From: a virus
Lineage: Duplodnaviria > Heunggongvirae > Uroviricota > Caudoviricetes
Reading direction: 5' to 3' (one strand)
IMG/VR virus record: IMGVR_UViG_648276647_000020
Length of the DNA: 30,723 bases
The notes beneath the pieces are model-generated. The model did not search any database. It saw only the letters and a program-made list of their open reading frames with translations, and was not told the origin of the DNA. The position numbers and the translations under genes are program-made. Positions 1 to 8,038 of this stretch are shown here, one piece after another (the stretch's first letter is position 1; every line of letters starts with the position of its first letter).

Positions 1-2103
1 ATGCAGTCGTACGTTACCGTAAATGACCTGCTCGGTGTTCCTGGAATGCCAGCCACCGCGAAAGGCATCCGACAGGCGTTACAGCGTTTTTCTCGTGCTC
101 TTGGTGACGTTAGTCGCCGTCGAGCAGGTACAAAAGCCATTGAGTACCACATCGATTGCCTGCCTGAGGTAACCCAAAAGGCACTGCGTGAACGCTATGT
201 GGAACAACTGGTGGCTACAGAGAACAACGTCTCCGAAGTGAAGACCGTTACCAGGACGGCGCGTAACCCTGATGCTGTTCAGGCAGTTGAAGCATATCGG
301 GGTTCTCCGCAACTAATGGAGGAACGCCTGAATGCCCTGACTGAAAATCAGCGCCGGGTGTCTGAAGCAAGAACGGCGCTGGCAGTGGAAGTGCTGAAGC
401 TGGAAAGCGCCGGTAACCTCGGGCGACTGAAAGCCATTAACTTTCTGGTTGAAAAAGCCCGTAAAGGTGAGTTGCCGGAACGACTGCAACAGGCTGCGAT
501 TAACGCTAATGCAAAACGTGGCACTAATCGCACCATCAGCCGTGATCCGCTTTACCAGTGGGTACTGAAATACAACCAGTCGCAGAACGCCGCAGAACGA
601 CTGTTGTTACTGGCACCAGGAAAACGCGACGAAATAAAACCGGAAGAAATTAGCTGGCTGCCTGAATTTCTGGCGCAGTATCGTCAGGCTAACGGCAGAC
701 CTATGTCGGAAGCCTACGAGGATTTTGTCACGGAATGGCAACGTCGCTATGCGGACGAACCGTACATGCTGGAGGTGATGCCTTCCTATGATGTTGTCCG
801 GTATGCCATGAAAAAATTGCCGGAAGTGGTGAAACAAAAAGGACGCGTTACCGGCAGTGAATACCGCCAGCTTGAGGGATTCACCCGCCGCGACTGGACA
901 GCTATGCCGGTGAATTATGTCTGGATTGGTGACGGCCACGGTATGAAGCTGAAATGTGCGCATCCGATCCACGGGCGTCCATTTTCACCGGAAGTCACGT
1001 TTGTTATCGACGGTGGAACCCGGTTTGTTGTTGGCTGGAGTCTTGTTCTTGCGGAGAACGTGTTTGCTGTTGCCGGGGCGATACAGCACGGAATTCGCAA
1101 TCACGGAAAACCCTACCTGTATTACTCGGATAATGGTTCCGGTGAAACGGCAGATATGCTGGATAAAGAGATCGTCGGGATTCTGCCCCGTCTGGGTATT
1201 AACCACCCCACCGGTATTGCCGGAAATCCGCAGGGACGCGGCATCATTGAACGTCTGAACCGGACGCTGCCGATGCGTATAGCCAGACGGTATCGCACCT
1301 ATTTTGGCAAGGGGGCAGACCGGGAAACACTGCGTGTACTCAATCGCGATCTGCGTTCAGCATTTAATGCCCTGCAACAGGACAAACCGCTGAATGCCCG
1401 CCAGAAATCTGCAATGCGCGAGCTGCCGTCCTGGTCAGAACTGATTGAGGCTATTCGTGAAGGAGTGGAATGGTACAACAACCGCCCGCATTCTGAACTG
1501 CCGATAAAACCAAACGGGAAGCATTACAGCCCGGCAGAGTTCAGAAAAAAACGCCTGGCGGAAGAAGACACTGAAATTGAGTGGCTGAGTGATATTGAGC
1601 TGCGTGACATGTTCCGCCCGATGGTGGAGCGTCCGGTAAGACGCTGCGAAATCCAGTGGCTGAACAATATTTACTACGCGCCAGAGCTGCGTGATGAACA
1701 TGGTCGCAAGGTACTTATCAGCTATGACATTCATGATGCCGAGCGAATTACGGTACGCCGTAAGGACGGTAGCTTTATCTGTGAGGCGATATGGAACGGC
1801 AATAAACGCGCAGCCTTTCCTGTTACGGCTGAATATCACAAACAACAGCAGCGTATCAAAGGAATGCGCAAGCGTGCTGAGGAAAAAATACGTGATGCTG
1901 AGGATGAAGGTATTCAGGTTATTGAACAAAAAACGACAGAACCCTGGCTGGATAACATCTATCGCCCTGTTGGTAATGTGGTGACCGTTCAGCCGCTGAA
2001 GCGTGAGGAAGCGCATGATGACAAATACGACCCCGAACGTGATGAATATCTGAATCATTCGCTGGATATTCTGGAACAGAACAGACGTAAAAAAGTCATT
2101 TAA
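1..2103 (+). CDS. A: Mu-like DDE transposase A
   Basis: 700 aa ORF. C-terminus ...ERDEYLNHSLDILEQNRRKKVI resembles the MuA domain III tail (MuB/ClpX interaction) as I recall it. Core has IGDGHG, YYSDNGSGE and GIIERLNRT segments compatible with a D-D-E triad but looks divergent from MuA. Immediately upstream of the B-like ATPase. Confidence 0.88.
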   Translation: MQSYVTVNDLLGVPGMPATAKGIRQALQRFSRALGDVSRRRAGTKAIEYHIDCLPEVTQKALRERYVEQLVATENNVSEVKTVTRTARNPDAVQAVEAYRGSPQLMEERLNALTENQRRVSEARTALAVEVLKLESAGNLGRLKAINFLVEKARKGELPERLQQAAINANAKRGTNRTISRDPLYQWVLKYNQSQNAAERLLLLAPGKRDEIKPEEISWLPEFLAQYRQANGRPMSEAYEDFVTEWQRRYADEPYMLEVMPSYDVVRYAMKKLPEVVKQKGRVTGSEYRQLEGFTRRDWTAMPVNYVWIGDGHGMKLKCAHPIHGRPFSPEVTFVIDGGTRFVVGWSLVLAENVFAVAGAIQHGIRNHGKPYLYYSDNGSGETADMLDKEIVGILPRLGINHPTGIAGNPQGRGIIERLNRTLPMRIARRYRTYFGKGADRETLRVLNRDLRSAFNALQQDKPLNARQKSAMRELPSWSELIEAIREGVEWYNNRPHSELPIKPNGKHYSPAEFRKKRLAEEDTEIEWLSDIELRDMFRPMVERPVRRCEIQWLNNIYYAPELRDEHGRKVLISYDIHDAERITVRRKDGSFICEAIWNGNKRAAFPVTAEYHKQQQRIKGMRKRAEEKIRDAEDEGIQVIEQKTTEPWLDNIYRPVGNVVTVQPLKREEAHDDKYDPERDEYLNHSLDILEQNRRKKVI

Positions 2104-2141
2104 TTAACGTTTTAACAAAATTTAATTACGAGGTTATTCAG

Positions 2142-3080
2142 ATGAATATTTCCGATATTCGCGCAGGACTGCGCACGCTTGTAGAAAATGAAGAAACCAC
2201 CTTTAAACAAATTGCTCTCGAGAGCGGGCTTTCTACCGGAACTATCAGTAGTTTTATCAATGATAAGTACAACGGGGATAACGAGCGTGTTTCACAAATG
2301 CTGCAACGCTGGCTGGAAAAATATCATGCAGTTGCAGAACTACCTGAACCGCCCCGCTTTGTGGAAACGCAGACGGTAAAACAAATCTGGACAAGTATGC
2401 GTTTTGCCAGCCTGACTGAAAGTATTGCTGTTGTATGTGGCAATCCTGGTGTGGGCAAAACCGAAGCGGCCCGTGAATATCGCCGCACCAATAACAATGT
2501 CTGGATGATCACCATTACGCCATCCTGTGCCAGCGTTCTGGAATGTCTTACTGAACTGGCGTTTGAGCTGGGAATGAATGACGCACCACGCCGTAAAGGG
2601 CCACTCTCCCGTGCCCTGCGACGTCGCCTTGAAGGTACACAGGGGCTGGTTATCATCGACGAAGCTGATCATCTTGGTGCCGAAGTTCTGGAAGAACTCC
2701 GCCTGTTACAGGAATCAACCCGCACTGGCCTTGTGCTGATGGGAAATCACCGGGTTTATTCAAATATGACGGGGGGTAACAGAACGGTTGAATTTGCCCG
2801 TCTGTTTTCCCGTATTGCAAAGCGCACTGCAATTAATAAAACAAAAAAAGCCGATGTAAAAGCTATTGCGGATGCCTGGCAGATTAACGGCGAAAATGAA
2901 CTGGAGTTATTACAGCAGATTGCGCAGAAACCAGGTGCGCTTCGCATTCTGAATCATTCACTTCGCCTTGCAGCCATGACGGCTCACGGTAAAGGTGAGC
3001 GTGTTAACGAAGATTATCTGCGTCAGGCTTTCCGTGAATTAGACCTGGACGTTGATATTTCAACGCTGCTGCGTAATTAA
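2142..3080 (+). CDS. B: Mu B-like transposition ATPase (target DNA activator)
   Basis: 312 aa. Walker A GNPGVGKTE, Walker B-like LVIIDEADHL. SD gagg upstream of ATG. Position directly after A. Confidence 0.92.
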   Translation: MNISDIRAGLRTLVENEETTFKQIALESGLSTGTISSFINDKYNGDNERVSQMLQRWLEKYHAVAELPEPPRFVETQTVKQIWTSMRFASLTESIAVVCGNPGVGKTEAAREYRRTNNNVWMITITPSCASVLECLTELAFELGMNDAPRRKGPLSRALRRRLEGTQGLVIIDEADHLGAEVLEELRLLQESTRTGLVLMGNHRVYSNMTGGNRTVEFARLFSRIAKRTAINKTKKADVKAIADAWQINGENELELLQQIAQKPGALRILNHSLRLAAMTAHGKGERVNEDYLRQAFRELDLDVDISTLLRN

Positions 3081-3095
3081 GAAGGAGAAGAAATT

Positions 3096-3323
3096 ATGAT
3101 GGCCCGAAATATAAAAATGGCAACGGATGCGCAGAACTGGTTACAGGCGCGCGGGAGTCATGTAAATGAATCATATCTCGGCGTGGCGCGTCCGATTCTT
3201 GAAATCACTTACCCACCGGTGGAACTGGTAAAAAACGCGGTCAGAATTATGGAGCATAAGTCCGGGGTGGCCCGTTCTGTATGGACGGCCCGTCTTAATG
3301 GTTGCCAGATTATCTGGAGATAA
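3096..3323 (+). CDS. small early protein of unknown function (at the position of Mu kil)
   Basis: 75 aa ORF with strong SD gaaggagaag 6-8 nt upstream. First gene after B; function inferred only from synteny. Confidence 0.55.
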
Positions 3324-3325
3324 CG

Positions 3326-3556
3326 ATGTGTATTAAAGCTGAAAAATATATTGAATGGGTTAAACACTGTCAGTGCCACGGGGTGCCGCTGACGACATAT
3401 AAATGCCCCGGATGTGGTGAACAGATTATGACGCAATGCTCACCCGAAAAGGAAATTCGGGATTCCCTGACATGTTGTCCGTGGTGCAGCGCAGTTTTCT
3501 TTAAACAGGTAAAAGGCGCGAAGGTAAAAGCCAGCGCGGTTATTCAGAATCAATAA
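3326..3556 (+). CDS. Cys-rich putative zinc-ribbon small protein
   Basis: 76 aa from ATG 3326 (SD ggaga 3315-3319); the ORF track's earlier start lies inside the previous gene. Motifs CQCHG, CPGCG, CCPWC. Confidence 0.55.
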   Translation: MCIKAEKYIEWVKHCQCHGVPLTTYKCPGCGEQIMTQCSPEKEIRDSLTCCPWCSAVFFKQVKGAKVKASAVIQNQ

Positions 3557-3567
3557 GGTGAAACAAA

Positions 3568-3831
3568 ATGGCAAAAGTAATTATTGAAATTAAAAATACA
3601 GTATCTGGAATTAAAGGACGGAATTTGCGCACCAGCATTGCGGTGGACGGTAGTGCGGAACTGGACGGTGATGAGGGTACACTTGCTGGCATGGTGGCGT
3701 TACTGGTGCTTAATAAAAGCCAGAAAATAATTAATGAGTCAGCCCATGAAGCTATTGAGATTTTGAAAAACGATGGTGTCATCACCGGTGTCCGTGTCAC
3801 TGAAATGGCTGTTGAAAAAACATGCCACTGA
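3568..3831 (+). CDS. hypothetical early protein
   Basis: 87 aa ORF, SD aaggtg upstream, AT-rich codon usage like neighbouring early ORFs. Confidence 0.55.
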   Translation: MAKVIIEIKNTVSGIKGRNLRTSIAVDGSAELDGDEGTLAGMVALLVLNKSQKIINESAHEAIEILKNDGVITGVRVTEMAVEKTCH

Positions 3832-3845
3832 AAGGAACGCTGACA

Positions 3846-4265
3846 ATGAACGTCAAAATCCGAAATGAAATTCAGGCATTAATCCGAATTCAGGAACGCA
3901 ATAACAACGGTGGTGAATTACGCGAGTTTATTTGCGCCCGGAAAGTTGATGGTTATGGTGAAAAGACTTACCTGATTACTTTCGACCATTACAGCATCTG
4001 TGCGCGTTATTGTGGCGAAAGCATATCCCGCGCCATTGCGTCTGGCGATGCGTTTAACGTGGATTTATGGGAGTACGTCATGGACCGTGAATACATCTGT
4101 GTATCAGACCCGAAAGCCCGTGAAATGTGGCAGCGTATCTGGCGCGATTACCGGTTAATGGCAAAAGGCTGGGCGCGCTGCTGTTATTCCTCGCTTGCCC
4201 TGAAAGCGGTTCAGTTATCGCTGCGGCATATTCCGGCATCACTGCGCGAGCCTCTGCTGTACTGA
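3846..4265 (+). CDS. hypothetical early protein (Cys-containing)
   Basis: 140 aa from internal ATG 3846 (MNVKIRNE...). Alternative start ATG 3822 overlaps the previous stop. No recognisable motif. Confidence 0.5.
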   Translation: MNVKIRNEIQALIRIQERNNNGGELREFICARKVDGYGEKTYLITFDHYSICARYCGESISRAIASGDAFNVDLWEYVMDREYICVSDPKAREMWQRIWRDYRLMAKGWARCCYSSLALKAVQLSLRHIPASLREPLLY

Positions 4266-4277
4266 ATGGTGGCTGAC

Positions 4278-4565
4278 ATGAAGTGTAATCGTAAGCGCTG
4301 GTCACGCGAAGACCGGGAATTTATCGAAGCCAACGTCGGGAAAATGACCGTTGAAGAAATGGCGGAAAAACTGAAAGTCGCCACAACCGCCCTCCGGGCA
4401 CATGCCAGAAGGCACGGAATATCATTGTGTGTATACCGAATCAGTGAACACGACAAATATTTATGTCGTGAACTTTATAAAGAAGGGCTGGATATTCATG
4501 TCATTGCCCGAAAGATGGAATTAAGCAATCGAGCTGTATCCAGCATTGTATACAGCGGATATTAA
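4278..4565 (+). CDS. small putative HTH DNA-binding protein
   Basis: About 96 aa; GGTGG SD 8 nt before ATG 4278 (alternative ATG 4266). Two helix-turn-helix-like stretches (MTVEEMAEKLKVATTALRAHARRHGI; LDIHVIARKMELSNRAVSSIVYSG). Confidence 0.5.
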   Translation: MKCNRKRWSREDREFIEANVGKMTVEEMAEKLKVATTALRAHARRHGISLCVYRISEHDKYLCRELYKEGLDIHVIARKMELSNRAVSSIVYSGY

Positions 4566-4584
4566 TTAACAGGAGCTTTAATTT

Positions 4585-5109
4585 ATGGCTAAACCAGCAA
4601 AACGTATCAAAAGTGCCGCAGCGGCTTATGTTCCACAAAACCGCGATGCGGTGATTACCGATATTAAACGCATCGGGGACTTACAGCGCGAAGCATCACG
4701 TCTGGAAACGGAAATGAATGATGCCATCGCGGAAATTACGGAGAAATTTGCAGCCCGGATTGCACCGATTAAAACCGATATTGAAACCCTTTCAAAAGGC
4801 GTTCAGGGATGGTGTGAAGCGAACCGCGACGAACTGACGAACGGCGGCAAAGTGAAGACGGCGAATCTTGTCACCGGTGATGTATCGTGGCGGGTCCGTC
4901 CACCATCAGTAAGTATTCGTGGTATGGATGCAGTGATGGAAACGCTGGAGCGTCTTGGCCTGCAACGCTTTATTCGCACGAAGCAGGAAATCAACAAGGA
5001 AGCGATTTTACTGGAACCGAAAGCGGTCGCAGGCGTTGCCGGAATTACAGTTAAATCAGGCATTGAGGATTTTTCTATTATTCCATTTGAACAGGAAGCC
5101 GGTATTTAA
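4585..5109 (+). CDS. gam: Gam-like host-nuclease inhibitor (DNA-end binding)
   Basis: 174 aa; N-terminus MAKPAKRIKSAAAAYVPQNRDAVITDIKRIGDLQREASRLE... resembles Mu Gam as I recall it. SD aggag upstream. Confidence 0.85.
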   Translation: MAKPAKRIKSAAAAYVPQNRDAVITDIKRIGDLQREASRLETEMNDAIAEITEKFAARIAPIKTDIETLSKGVQGWCEANRDELTNGGKVKTANLVTGDVSWRVRPPSVSIRGMDAVMETLERLGLQRFIRTKQEINKEAILLEPKAVAGVAGITVKSGIEDFSIIPFEQEAGI

Positions 5110-5207
5110 TACCACCATTAATATTTAATTAATTCACATTCTTTTAATTATGGCGCGATACGTCAGGGGATTGCTCGCGCCTGAAACAGATTACTGAGGA
5201 ATAAAAC

Positions 5208-5738
5208 ATGGTTGATGCAAAAATTCTGAATGGTGTCAGCACATTATTACGGGCTTTCGGACGCCTGACCTGCGGAGTTCTGGCTGAAAAAATGAATATG
5301 CTGCCCTCGTCAATGGTGTATTTCCTGCGTGATGCGGTTGATGCCGGAGTGCTCACCGAATGCAACGGATTTTATGACGTTCCGCGCCCGCGTCCGACGC
5401 CGCCTGTAAGACGAAACGCAACTGAGCAGCCTGCTGTTGATGATGCGGTGTGGTGCAACTGGCGTCGCTCATTACCCTGGGTGGAAGGTAATACCATCCC
5501 CGCGCTGGCAAAAGAGTTTGCGACGGGCGTGCTGACCTGTGAATCCGTTCACATCGTTGCAGAAGTGGACAACAGAATGTGCGAACAGGGTATGCCCCGT
5601 TTTGTGATGGCTTATATCGATATCCGGCTGGGGCGTTTTATTTGCAGTTCAAGCGCCTGGAATATCACCGACCATGTACTGCGTTATCTCATTCTTGATT
5701 GTTCTCCGGTTCCCGCAGCGGTGCAGGAGATGGCGTGA
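5208..5738 (+). CDS. hypothetical early protein, possible N-terminal winged-helix
   Basis: 176 aa, SD gagga upstream. Stop overlaps the next start (TGATG at 5736-5740). Confidence 0.55.
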   Translation: MVDAKILNGVSTLLRAFGRLTCGVLAEKMNMLPSSMVYFLRDAVDAGVLTECNGFYDVPRPRPTPPVRRNATEQPAVDDAVWCNWRRSLPWVEGNTIPALAKEFATGVLTCESVHIVAEVDNRMCEQGMPRFVMAYIDIRLGRFICSSSAWNITDHVLRYLILDCSPVPAAVQEMA

Positions 5739-6268
5739 TGTTTTTTAAAACGTCAAATCCCGCAGCACTGCTGGCATGGGACCAGTTTATGGCGGACTGC
5801 CTGAAACTACGCGAAGAAGCCCGCCATCTTGAGAAGGTTCTGGGCTGTGGTTGCCGGTCAGTATTCAGCACAGGTATTGGTGGGCGTCATTTTCATGGCG
5901 TGAATTTTCCGGGGAATGAGCGCCCCTTCTCGCGGGAGCTGTGGACCGTACAACGGCCCGCATCAGGTAACAGTTGCAGGCCCAGAACTTCGCGGATACC
6001 TGCTCATCTCAGGGAGCAGGCAAGAGAGCTGGCGAAAATATGGCAGGAGAATATTCCGGTCACTTACGCCCGCACAGACGCTCTTTTACCCGCACTGGGA
6101 CTGGATTTCAGCGCAACAATATTCGGGCCGCTCCAGTGGTTCCGTGTTGGTGATGTGATTTACGTCATGACGGGGATGACACCCGCACAAGGCCGCATGA
6201 CTGAAATCCTTTCTGACGAATTTATCCGGGCGCAAAAACAGGCGGAGGTAAACAATGGAAAACAATAA
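5738..6268 (+). CDS. hypothetical early protein
   Basis: 176 aa from ATG 5738, translationally coupled to the upstream ORF. A central low-complexity stretch and an overlapping alternative-frame ORF (5916-6158) leave open a frameshifted gene. Confidence 0.45.
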   Translation: MFFKTSNPAALLAWDQFMADCLKLREEARHLEKVLGCGCRSVFSTGIGGRHFHGVNFPGNERPFSRELWTVQRPASGNSCRPRTSRIPAHLREQARELAKIWQENIPVTYARTDALLPALGLDFSATIFGPLQWFRVGDVIYVMTGMTPAQGRMTEILSDEFIRAQKQAEVNNGKQ

Positions 6269-6437
6269 AACATCGTATTCGTGGCTGGGGAAATTCACCA
6301 CGGTGAAACAGGAATGCCCGACCTGCGGTAATGAATCCCCTGAATATCTGAAAGAGTGCCCTCATTGTGGCGGGCTGAAATGCAACCACTGCGATATGGG
6401 CGATGACACAGCGTGCATGAATTGTGAAGGTGAATAA
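6255..6437 (+). CDS. putative zinc-ribbon small protein
   Basis: 60 aa with four CxxC pairs (CPTC, CPHC, CNHC, CMNC). SD ggagg 6 nt upstream. Confidence 0.55.
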   Translation: MENNKTSYSWLGKFTTVKQECPTCGNESPEYLKECPHCGGLKCNHCDMGDDTACMNCEGE

Positions 6438-6438
6438 T

Positions 6439-6741
6439 ATGAATAATGAAACTAAATTTACTCCCCTTAATATTGATAACGTCATGGCTGAAAAAGGGAT
6501 GCTGGAACGTGTTCGCGCTATCGTTGAATATGGTATTAAGCATAATCTCACCGCCAGAGAAGTCCGTGACATTATCAACCGCGAAATGAATCGTCTGGAA
6601 ACAGTAGTGGCACTGCAAAATGAAACAGCCCGCGAGGAGTACATCCGCCGCAGGCTGGGGCTATCAGACCAGGATATTGTTACTGACGCTCATGTATTTG
6701 AGGCTTTTGAGATCCGTCAGCATCTGGGCCTTACGAACTGA
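6439..6741 (+). CDS. hypothetical early protein
   Basis: 100 aa from ATG 6439 with SD aaggtg; the track's 6424 start is a GTG just upstream. Confidence 0.5.
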   Translation: MNNETKFTPLNIDNVMAEKGMLERVRAIVEYGIKHNLTAREVRDIINREMNRLETVVALQNETAREEYIRRRLGLSDQDIVTDAHVFEAFEIRQHLGLTN

Positions 6742-6792
6742 TGTGTAAATTCAGGCGGTGTTGCAGCACCGCCTCTTTCCGGAGGTACGATC

Positions 6793-7344
6793 ATGAGTCG
6801 CACATCCCTGATTAAATTAATCCATGTCGCCCGTCGGGAGCTACAACTCGACGACGACACTTACCGCGCTTTTCTGATGCAGAAAACGGGCAAAATCAGT
6901 TGCCGCGAGCTGACGGTAACGCAACTGGAACAGGTGCTCGATGCCATGAAAGAACGCGGCTTTAAGAAGCTGAATAAACATCCACGTCGCCGCTTTAAGG
7001 GGCATGTCACGCCCCGCGAGAAGGTATACAAAGTCTGGCAGCAGATGGCAGAAGACGGTTTTATTACCGATGGCGGTGATGTGGCGCTGGATAAATATGT
7101 TCAGCGCCTGACGGCGAAACGTAATGGCGGACAGGGTGTTTCCACGCTGGCGTGGTGCCATGGCGACACGCTGCTGACAGTCCTCGAAACACTCAAGCAG
7201 TGGCACATCCGCTGTATTCGTGAAGCCTTTTCCCGTCACGGGCTTCCGTTGCCGGTCAGTCCGTCCGGGCGTGAACTGCGCGGCTATGACGCCATGACGG
7301 CGGCTTATGCCCATGCCAGAAAGACACGGAGGATGGCACAATGA
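6793..7344 (+). CDS. gemA: GemA-like (Mu gp16) regulatory protein
   Basis: 183 aa, N-terminus MSRTSLIKLIHVARRELQLDDDTYRAFLMQ.... Position immediately upstream of and overlapping mor (ATGA). SD ggagg. Confidence 0.7.
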   Translation: MSRTSLIKLIHVARRELQLDDDTYRAFLMQKTGKISCRELTVTQLEQVLDAMKERGFKKLNKHPRRRFKGHVTPREKVYKVWQQMAEDGFITDGGDVALDKYVQRLTAKRNGGQGVSTLAWCHGDTLLTVLETLKQWHIRCIREAFSRHGLPLPVSPSGRELRGYDAMTAAYAHARKTRRMAQ

Positions 7345-7730
7345 CGGAAGATTTATTTGGTGATTTGCAGGATGACACCATCCTGGCACATCTTGACAAT
7401 CCCGCCGAGGATACGTCACGCTTTCCGGCACTGCTGGCGGAGCTGAACGATTTACTGCGCGGGGAATTGTCCCGGCTGGGTGTTGATCCTGCCCATTCAC
7501 TGGAGATTGTTGTGGCTATCTGTAAGCATCTGGGCGGCGGTCAGGTCTACATTCCACGCGGTCAGGTTCTGGACTCGCTGATTCGGGATTTGCGTATCTG
7601 GAATGATTTTAACGGTCGCAACGTCAGCGAACTGACCACCCGTTATGGTGTCACTTTCAATACGGTTTACAAGGCCATTCGCCGGATGCGACGGCTGAAA
7701 TACCGCCAGTACCAGCCCTCACTTCTGTAA
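7341..7730 (+). CDS. mor: Mor-like middle-operon transcription activator
   Basis: 129 aa. C-terminal HTH region (YIPRGQVLDSLIRDLRIWNDFNGRNVSELTTRYGVTFNTVYKAIRR) is paralogous to the C protein at 8151. Followed by a terminator. Confidence 0.85.
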   Translation: MTEDLFGDLQDDTILAHLDNPAEDTSRFPALLAELNDLLRGELSRLGVDPAHSLEIVVAICKHLGGGQVYIPRGQVLDSLIRDLRIWNDFNGRNVSELTTRYGVTFNTVYKAIRRMRRLKYRQYQPSLL

Positions 7731-7737
7731 ACAGTAA

Positions 7738-7761
7738 AGCCGGTTAATCCGGCTTTTTTTA
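7738..7761 (+). terminator. rho-independent terminator after mor (end of early operon)
   Basis: Perfect hairpin AAAGCCGG (7738-7744) / loop TTAAT / CCGGCTTT (7750-7757), followed by a T-run to 7761. Confidence 0.8.
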
Positions 7762-7807
7762 CGTCCTCAATATCCTGTGATGAATAACCGTACCGGGGGA
7801 AATCATC

Positions 7808-8038
7808 ATGGGTAAAGGCTGGAATGCATCCTTTCATCTTGGCAGACGTGAGCGGCTGCGTCAGGAGGTTTTACACCGTGTCGCCGGTGGGCCACGTCCT
7901 GCGCCCCGCGACTATACCGGTCATGATGGCACCCACGGAAGTTATTACATGAAAGGCTGGCAGTCGGTTGATATGCCGGAAATTCTTCACCACTGCCAAC
8001 GTTATAAGGAAAAATATCATGTACAGAAAATTCAGTGA
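7808..8038 (+). CDS. hypothetical small protein between mor and C
   Basis: 76 aa ORF with SD ggggga upstream. Overlapped by minus-strand ORFs, so coding status is uncertain. Confidence 0.4.
   Translation: MGKGWNASFHLGRRERLRQEVLHRVAGGPRPAPRDYTGHDGTHGSYYMKGWQSVDMPEILHHCQRYKEKYHVQKIQ

Follow-up and report, generated by a model that had tools for sequence, protein, structure and literature searches.

Between the transposition gene B and gemA of a 30,723-nucleotide stretch of viral DNA (IMG/VR record IMGVR_UViG_648276647_000020; hereafter, the window) lies a block of ten small early genes (positions 3096-6741). We consider it very likely that this block is the semi-essential early region of a Mu-type Escherichia coli prophage and that it most likely does the job it does in Mu, its products forming a module that conditions the host and protects the genome, not a set of enzymes. 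The block is already known and not peculiar to this prophage: knowledge of it goes back to the sequencing of the Mu early region, and record M64097 already labels E5-E15.

The block and its counterpart in phage Mu

A megablast search of window 2900-7000 against phage records gave a full-length match to Escherichia phage Mu at 98.6% identity. Direct comparison aligned window 2013-6742 with Mu 3229-7958, ungapped and with 67 nucleotide mismatches, and the block itself corresponded, without gaps, to NC_000929 4315-7957. All ten genes have counterparts in Mu (NC_000929/AF083977, Mup05-Mup14) in identical order and with identical spacing, following the Mu annotation kil-gp6-gp7-gp8-gp9-gam-gp11-gp12-gp13-gp14-gemA-mor. 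From kil to gp14, the products differ from those of Mu by 0, 0, 2, 3, 1, 0, 4, 3, 0 and 0 amino acids (97.7-100% identity for each), and these 13 amino-acid substitutions are all that this copy of the block adds to what is known. A sequence-only reading of the window had proposed a comparison with Mu and D108 as a way of finding open reading frames (ORFs) unique to this prophage; there were none. The position from B to gemA/mor, the strand shared with A and B, and the gene-for-gene agreement with Mup05-Mup14 together identify the block, at the level of sequence, as the region of Mu that has been termed semi-essential early (SE or SEE), which is transcribed from Pe, has “largely uncharacterized functions” and in Mu can be dispensed with for plaque formation, although growth suffers when it is deleted (PMC3820752, PMC4553209, PMC8705779).

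The exact MuA protein was found on Logan contig SRR024152_14, which matches the window across 12.1 kb and whose left-hand flanking sequence matches E. coli chromosomes at 100% identity; the window is thus from a Mu-type prophage in an E. coli chromosome. Among 5426 complete E. coli genomes, 97 had a match to the block and 37 had at least 80% of it, the best matches being Mu itself (98.6%). The contig has one A fewer than the window in an A-run of B (window 2841), truncating B to 238 amino acids there; B is intact in the window (312 amino acids), and most likely one of the two sequences has a homopolymer error from assembly or sequencing.

All ten genes lie consecutively on the + strand and are tightly packed (Table 1). 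About ten small, mostly coupled ORFs, richer in AT than the late genes and with no enzymatic motif except Gam, had been read from the sequence, and this description held: intergenic spacing was −14 to +19 nucleotides except for the gap after gam, the coding share was 96%, G+C was 0.485 compared with 0.553 in the late region (9000-30000), and a Pfam scan of the block found only Gam (144.1 bits) and the function-less Gp11_C domain. The sizes given there, 56-176 amino acids, were right at the upper limit, but the shortest gene encodes 60, and two starts were moved by the Mu annotation, that of kil from 3096 to 3099, one codon downstream, and that of gp8 from 3822 to 3846 (139 amino acids). The block held 11 ATG-initiated ORFs of at least 56 amino acids, compared with a mean of 2.3 in shuffled sequence, with a summed ORF length of 1250 amino acids against a shuffle maximum of 481. 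Every block protein matched some PHROG family (E ≤1e-40).

Table 1 Genes of the early block, its bounding genes and its one sizeable spacer (starts as annotated in Mu)
Feature	Position in window	Strand	Remarks
B	2142-3080	+	transposition gene bounding the block upstream
kil (Mu gp5)	3099-3323	+	74 amino acids; basic, isoelectric point (pI) 10.2; early host-killing protein
gp6 (E5)	3326-3556	+	76 amino acids; 9 Cys, two CxxC pairs
gp7 (E6/Mup07 = Gnarl2)	3568-3831	+	87 amino acids
gp8 (E7)	3846-4265	+	139 amino acids
gp9 (E8)	4266-4565	+	99 amino acids; basic, pI 9.3
gam (gp10)	4585-5109	+	174 amino acids
gam-gp11 spacer	5110-5207	+	98 nucleotides; sole sizeable non-coding gap in the block
gp11 (formerly E10-12)	5208-5738	+	176 amino acids
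gp12 (E13)	5738-6268	+	176 amino acids
gp13 (E14)	6255-6437	+	60 amino acids; acidic, pI 4.8; four CxxC pairs (eight Cys)
gp14 (E15)	6439-6741	+	100 amino acids
gemA	6793-7344		bounds the block downstream

The gp13 start overlaps the end of gp12 by 14 nucleotides. Purine-rich, Shine-Dalgarno-like motifs were found upstream of eight starts in the block; the gp9 start sits at the stop codon of gp8, and the motif of kil lies ~8 nucleotides farther upstream than usual. On the + strand inside the block, we found no consensus for a sigma-70 promoter or an intrinsic terminator. An Rfam scan of 2900-7400 found no RNA families, and a hairpin in the gam-gp11 spacer was, overall, not significant (z = −1.35). 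The tight packing and the lack of an internal promoter or terminator consensus lend indirect support to early co-transcription from Pe in this prophage; the ten genes would most likely be part of a single long early transcript that also carries A and B, and their products would be expected within minutes of induction or infection.

Between the block and its Mu counterpart there are 36 synonymous and 13 non-synonymous differences, giving a ratio of non-synonymous to synonymous differences per site (pN/pS) of 0.11. Per-gene ratios of the corresponding substitution rates (dN/dS), reported where at least five substitutions were counted, ranged from 0 to 0.38 against SfMu, D108, vB_YpM_5 and PhiR68_1, with the strongest constraint on Gam and Kil and the weakest on gp6. 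By these ratios, all ten genes are under purifying selection. The sequence-only reading had named a lack of such selection as a result that would count against it, and that result was not obtained.

Kil, Gam and Gnarl2

Three of the ten proteins have near-identical Mu counterparts with a published function, and it is on that literature that the roles given for them here rest. The kil product is identical to that of Mu (74/74 amino acids, NP_050609) and matches PHROG 2743 (E=1e-42); Pfam PF26843 Kil_protein is recorded on the identical Logan contig. Expression of Mu kil produces spherical, not filamentous, cells, and the Kil proteins of Mu, lambda and Rac are without significant mutual similarity (PMC3961180). 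Spherical cells indicate a block of elongation, and because Mu Kil is unrelated to its lambda and Rac namesakes and gives this phenotype (PMC3961180), the PHROG label ‘septation inhibition’ appears to be a misleading name carried over from lambda/Rac Kil. In the prophage, Kil would be expected to halt cell elongation and kill the host.

Gam is 100% identical in amino acids to the Gam proteins of both Mu and D108 and matches Pfam PF07352 well above its cut-off (28.3 bits) over residues 21-166, with a dN/dS of 0-0.14. The Ku-like Gam-Mu protein forms dimers that bind the ends of double-stranded DNA and keep RecBCD from loading (PMC12407980, PMC3820752). From its 100% identity to Mu Gam we infer the same DNA-end binding and RecBCD protection for the window protein, dimers of which would cap linear Mu DNA ends and exclude RecBCD. 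In the Pseudomonas phage JBD30, the homologues of Gam-Mu and GemA render the phage Gabija-sensitive (PMC12407980).

The window gp7 is 85/87 amino acids identical to NP_050611.1 (Mup07), differing by the adjacent substitutions S74G and G75V; the G at position 74 is common to the window and SfMu. NP_050611.1 is orf63, which was named gnarl2, with the accession given in the supplement (Silas et al., Nat Commun 2025; PMC12373910; preprint 10.1101/2023.04.06.535777). In the wild E. coli strains ECOR1 and ECOR22, gnarl2 shifted the O-antigen ladder downwards and raised T5 plating by 1e5-1e6-fold, and it was conditionally lethal in some hosts (PMC12373910). By sequence identity and matching locus, the window gp7 is Gnarl2, a small soluble modifier of O-antigen, the phenotype being that reported for the Mu protein. 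We found no transmembrane segment in gp7 and, by sequence and profile search, no relative in the Protein Data Bank (PDB). Because it is without a transmembrane segment, gp7 presumably works in the O-antigen pathway at a cytoplasmic step or from the cytoplasmic face. Acting from the cytoplasm on O-antigen synthesis, it would alter the cell surface, a likely benefit being exclusion of other phages or the avoidance of progeny re-adsorption to debris.

The sequence-only reading had treated the region as equivalent to the early accessory region of Mu with its host-interference functions, and Kil, Gam and gp7 (Gnarl2) are indeed host-directed. Its view that the ORFs around gam were of unknown function stood for seven proteins, which are without demonstrated function, but not for gp7, for which Gnarl2 supplies an experimental one. 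It had also listed sot and lig among the functions of the Mu region; we take these, from the older literature, to be gam itself and the gem operon downstream, respectively, and not extra genes of the block. A near-identical Mu counterpart was found for every ORF, yet the characterized ones are only kil, gam and gp7, all three host-interfering; of what the reading had named as counting against it, a near-identical and already characterized Mu counterpart of non-defence function for every ORF, only half was thus obtained. The host-interference reading is therefore partly supported, as a statement about Mu and not as a discovery in this window.

The seven other proteins and their possible roles

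No functional study of gp6, gp8, gp9 or gp11-gp14 came up when the literature was searched by locus tag, keyword and protein accession. Seven conserved early proteins under purifying selection, in a phage as much studied as Mu, are thus still without a demonstrated function in Mu-type phages. None of the ten block proteins has a predicted transmembrane segment. PDB sequence and profile searches of gp7, gp8, gp9, gp11, gp12 and gp14 returned nothing below E=0.03.

Helix-turn-helix or zinc-ribbon features were found in three of the seven. The gp9 protein (98/99 amino acids identical to Mu) matches PHROG 323, ‘transcriptional regulator, D5-like’ (E=7e-29), has sub-threshold matches to sigma-70 region 4, Cbp1 and HTH_Tnp_1 and a weak match to the two-helix-turn-helix (two-HTH) protein 2lvs (E=0.043), and is probably a tandem HTH DNA binder. 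The gp6 protein, 100% identical to that of Mu (PHROG 3786; PF26833 Phage_Mu_gp6), is a predicted zinc ribbon, its matches to FmdB-type zinc ribbons being weak and below cut-off. The gp13 protein, likewise 100% identical (PHROG 5584), is predicted to form a double zinc-binding module of zinc-ribbon type, again with weak, below-cut-off matches (DnaJ-CXXCXGXG and rubredoxin). Because gp13 also matches the C-terminal 56 positions of the 231-position family phrog_6418 (PHROG 6418; E=2e-33), other phages have its module joined to an N-terminal domain of larger size; gp12 was not matched by the N-terminal part of the family.

The remaining four gave fewer clues. In gp11 (172/176 amino acids identical to Mu), residues 90-167 match Pfam PF25754 Gp11_C (138 bits), and the protein has two conserved halves joined by a variable Pro/Arg-rich linker. 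It has 224 homologues; among the best 120 listed, every one with a named source came from E. coli or Salmonella. Searching the PDB with a gp11 profile found nothing; a baseplate-wedge match (E=0.57) was treated as chance, and a winged helix at the N-terminus was dropped as no tool supported it. With three amino-acid differences from Mu, gp12 is modelled as a confidently folded alpha+beta protein, and its fold, for which the good model has no known structural neighbour, appears to be phage-only. The gp8 protein (136/139 amino acids identical to Mu; dN/dS 0.12-0.27) was without a match in Pfam, NCBIfam, PADLOC or the PDB. An exhaustive HMMER profile search of 1.84 billion representative proteins gave only 10 matches to it, essentially one full-length cluster and fragments, and no distant relatives able to deepen the alignment; the AlphaFold model, built from a 14-sequence alignment, had a predicted local distance difference test score (pLDDT) of 45 and was unusable. 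The gp8 family is a true orphan, found only in the Mu-like prophages of E. coli, Salmonella and their near relatives. The gp14 protein, 100% identical to Mu (PHROG 6075), had no predicted fold and no credible PDB match; a match to pesticin (E=0.03) was treated as chance.

Besides Kil, Gam and Gnarl2, the other small soluble proteins (gp6, gp8, gp9 and gp11-gp14) would most likely bind host or phage macromolecules and so aid replicative transposition and host takeover. Several points weigh against the assignment of the block as a whole to a Mu-like conditioning and protection module. For the seven proteins, a binding role is a default assumption, and a benefit of Gnarl2 to the phage that encodes it is not proven even by the paper that described it (PMC12373910). 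The repressor, Ner and the MuA N-terminus of the window differ from those of Mu, so that early regulation could differ, and the loss of 27 bp of a semi-early promoter, described below, may make expression downstream of the block differ from that in Mu.

It is possible, although we do not favour it, that gp9, gp6, gp13 and perhaps gp11 are not directed at the host at all but are accessories of transposition or replication (“arm”) or early-to-middle regulators that bind DNA. The HTH-type similarity of gp9 described above and the zinc-ribbon modules of gp6 and gp13, of a kind frequent in nucleic-acid-binding proteins, would fit this, as would the location of the genes directly downstream of A and B and the listing of “arm” and “cim” among SE-region functions (PMC4553209). 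However, the HTH and zinc-ribbon matches fall below every curated cut-off, DNA binding by these proteins is itself a prediction from sequence, zinc ribbons also serve protein-protein contacts, and “arm” is not assigned to a particular ORF in the literature that we found.

On present evidence there is a modest chance that at least one of the seven proteins works by a new mechanism as an effector of host takeover or counter-defence, for which gp12, with its confidently predicted phage-only fold, and the orphan gp8 would be the best candidates. The gp7 protein (Gnarl2), a stand-alone modifier of O-antigen, offers a precedent. If this is true, the discovery would apply equally to Mu and not to this window in particular.

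Variable positions and flanks of the block

The sequence-only reading had described the early region as variable between relatives, which was so for the gp7 slot and the gp13-to-gemA interval, but conservation across Muvirus holds for eight of the ten genes. A backbone of kil-gp6-(gp7 slot)-gp8-gp9-gam-gp11-gp12 was present in all five relatives compared, and D108, SfMu, the Yersinia phages vB_YpM_5/6 and PhiR68_1 have it in common with the window at 77-100% amino-acid identity. Six of these genes (kil, gp8, gp9, gam, gp11 and gp12) showed roughly 85-100% amino-acid identity in five of five relatives; gp13 was kept in four of five, and gp6 occurred as two alleles that are 77% identical, the second being found in SfMu, YpM_5 and PhiR68_1 (dN/dS ~0.3). 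Judged by these alignments, the eight genes are conserved and not swapped, unlike those of a typical anti-defence hotspot.

Swaps and insertions were seen at three points: the gp7 locus, the gam-gp11 spacer and the gp13-to-gemA interval. At the first, unrelated alleles replace gp7 in D108, YpM_5 and PhiR68_1, and the three alleles of the slot have in common only the first ~8 residues and the final His. At the second, SfMu carries an extra DUF5420 gene (2601-3155 of the SfMu stretch compared). At the third, SfMu and vB_YpM_5 have an additional 102-amino-acid ORF ahead of gp14, D108 has a gp14 allele that is 37% identical, and in PhiR68_1 unrelated ORFs of 222 and 113 amino acids replace gp13 and gp14 (3672-4684 of the PhiR68_1 stretch compared). 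Throughout the block the window carries the alleles of Mu, and it has no additional genes there. The cargo of the swap points (the 222- and 113-amino-acid ORFs of PhiR68_1 and the DUF5420 gene of SfMu) represents the accessory genes that truly vary in the early region of Muvirus, and would be a better source of anti-defence candidates than the conserved genes of the window.

The Pseudomonas Mu-like phages JBD30, DMS3 and D3112 (Casadabanvirus) have an analogous layout, with a series of short early genes surrounding GemA and a homologue of Gam-Mu (in JBD30, 61% identical to Mu Gam). Beyond Gam and GemA, no search turned up sequence similarity between these phages and the block. The anti-CRISPR genes of Casadabanvirus are located in the late region.

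This pattern bears on a further alternative, that the block is mainly an anti-defence island in which most of the seven proteins inhibit specific immune systems (restriction-modification, CRISPR, abortive infection or others) around gam, which we regard as unlikely. Gam antagonizes RecBCD, and homologues of Gam-Mu and GemA interact genetically with Gabija (PMC12407980). The gp7 gene was picked by an algorithm that seeks variable accessory regions in which counter-defence genes are enriched, and it was a hit in a screen for counter-defence (PMC12373910); its locus is one of three points of swapping or insertion, and small, early-expressed, non-enzymatic proteins are the usual anti-defence profile. 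Gnarl2, however, acts on a surface barrier, not on immunity inside the cell, and helps other phages rather than obviously Mu (PMC12373910). The nine non-Gam proteins matched no anti-defence family (Acr, Ocr/ArdA-type DNA mimics or other inhibitors) in Pfam, PHROGs or NCBIfam, none of which is a dedicated anti-defence library, a PADLOC scan of the ten proteins found no defence-system component (the sole match, of gp9 to mad1 at 14 bits, was sub-threshold), and none of the ten is acidic enough to suggest a DNA mimic. The earlier suggestion that the neighbours of gam are anti-defence or host-takeover proteins stood for the host-directed Kil and gp7, but drew no match from these databases. Most of the genes are conserved, whereas strain-specific inhibitors usually vary by presence or absence. 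Deletions in the SE region impair the growth of Mu even in defence-poor K-12 hosts, hence “semi-essential”, which points to general growth functions. An anti-defence island is the weaker explanation because the genes are mostly conserved, bear no likeness to known inhibitors and are associated with this growth defect in K-12.

That gp6, gp13 and gp14 are chance open frames in an AT-richer spacer is most improbable: they are short (60-100 amino acids) and without a curated-family match in the local Pfam, but their frames are intact and closely abut their neighbours, each matches a PHROG family at E ≤1e-40 with a dN/dS of 0.1-0.35, the cysteines of gp13 (eight) and gp6 (two CxxC pairs) are spaced in regular metal-binding patterns, and the ORF content of the block is far above that of shuffled sequence.

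Outside the block, the window departs from Mu on both sides. Upstream, its repressor, Ner and MuA N-terminus are of another immunity type, and window 1-2012 appears to come from a prophage of different immunity type from Mu. The first ~580 nucleotides of the transposase gene A had no megablast match in the phage collection, 583-2012 of A matched only the Yersinia phages vB_YpM_5/6 (95%), and only the last ~90 nucleotides of A are Mu-like; upstream of A lie a 171-amino-acid repressor-like ORF on the opposite strand and an 83-amino-acid Ner-like ORF. Mu and D108 likewise differ in the region of the repressor, Ner and the MuA N-terminus.

Downstream, 219 bp of Mu (NC_000929 7959-8177) are absent between gp14 and gemA (junction ~6741); on either side of this segment, Mu has a short direct repeat, CTGAT. 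Its loss takes the start and ribosome-binding site of the minus-strand Mup15 (and of the alternative + strand Mu_54), as well as 27 bp from the beginning of the “semi-early promoter” that AF083977 places upstream of gemA. No exact match to the deletion junction was found in species-representative genomes. Farther on, the E19/Mup19 gene, for which AF083977 annotates four predicted transmembrane domains, is also absent from the window (~8018-8022); window 7990-8022 is unlike the Mu sequence on either side of E19, and the sequence is Mu-like again from the gp20 start. For Mu early-gene screens, the prophage would be of use as a naturally occurring heteroimmune variant in which the block is complete but Mup15 and Mup19 are lacking.

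Just 5′ of the gemA ribosome-binding site is a G+C-rich hairpin (6754-6780; GGCGGTG-TTGC-AGCACCGCC, then TCTTTCC), with a folding z-score of −2.5, that is conserved in Mu and could weakly terminate or attenuate transcription, or affect RNA stability, at the end of the block.

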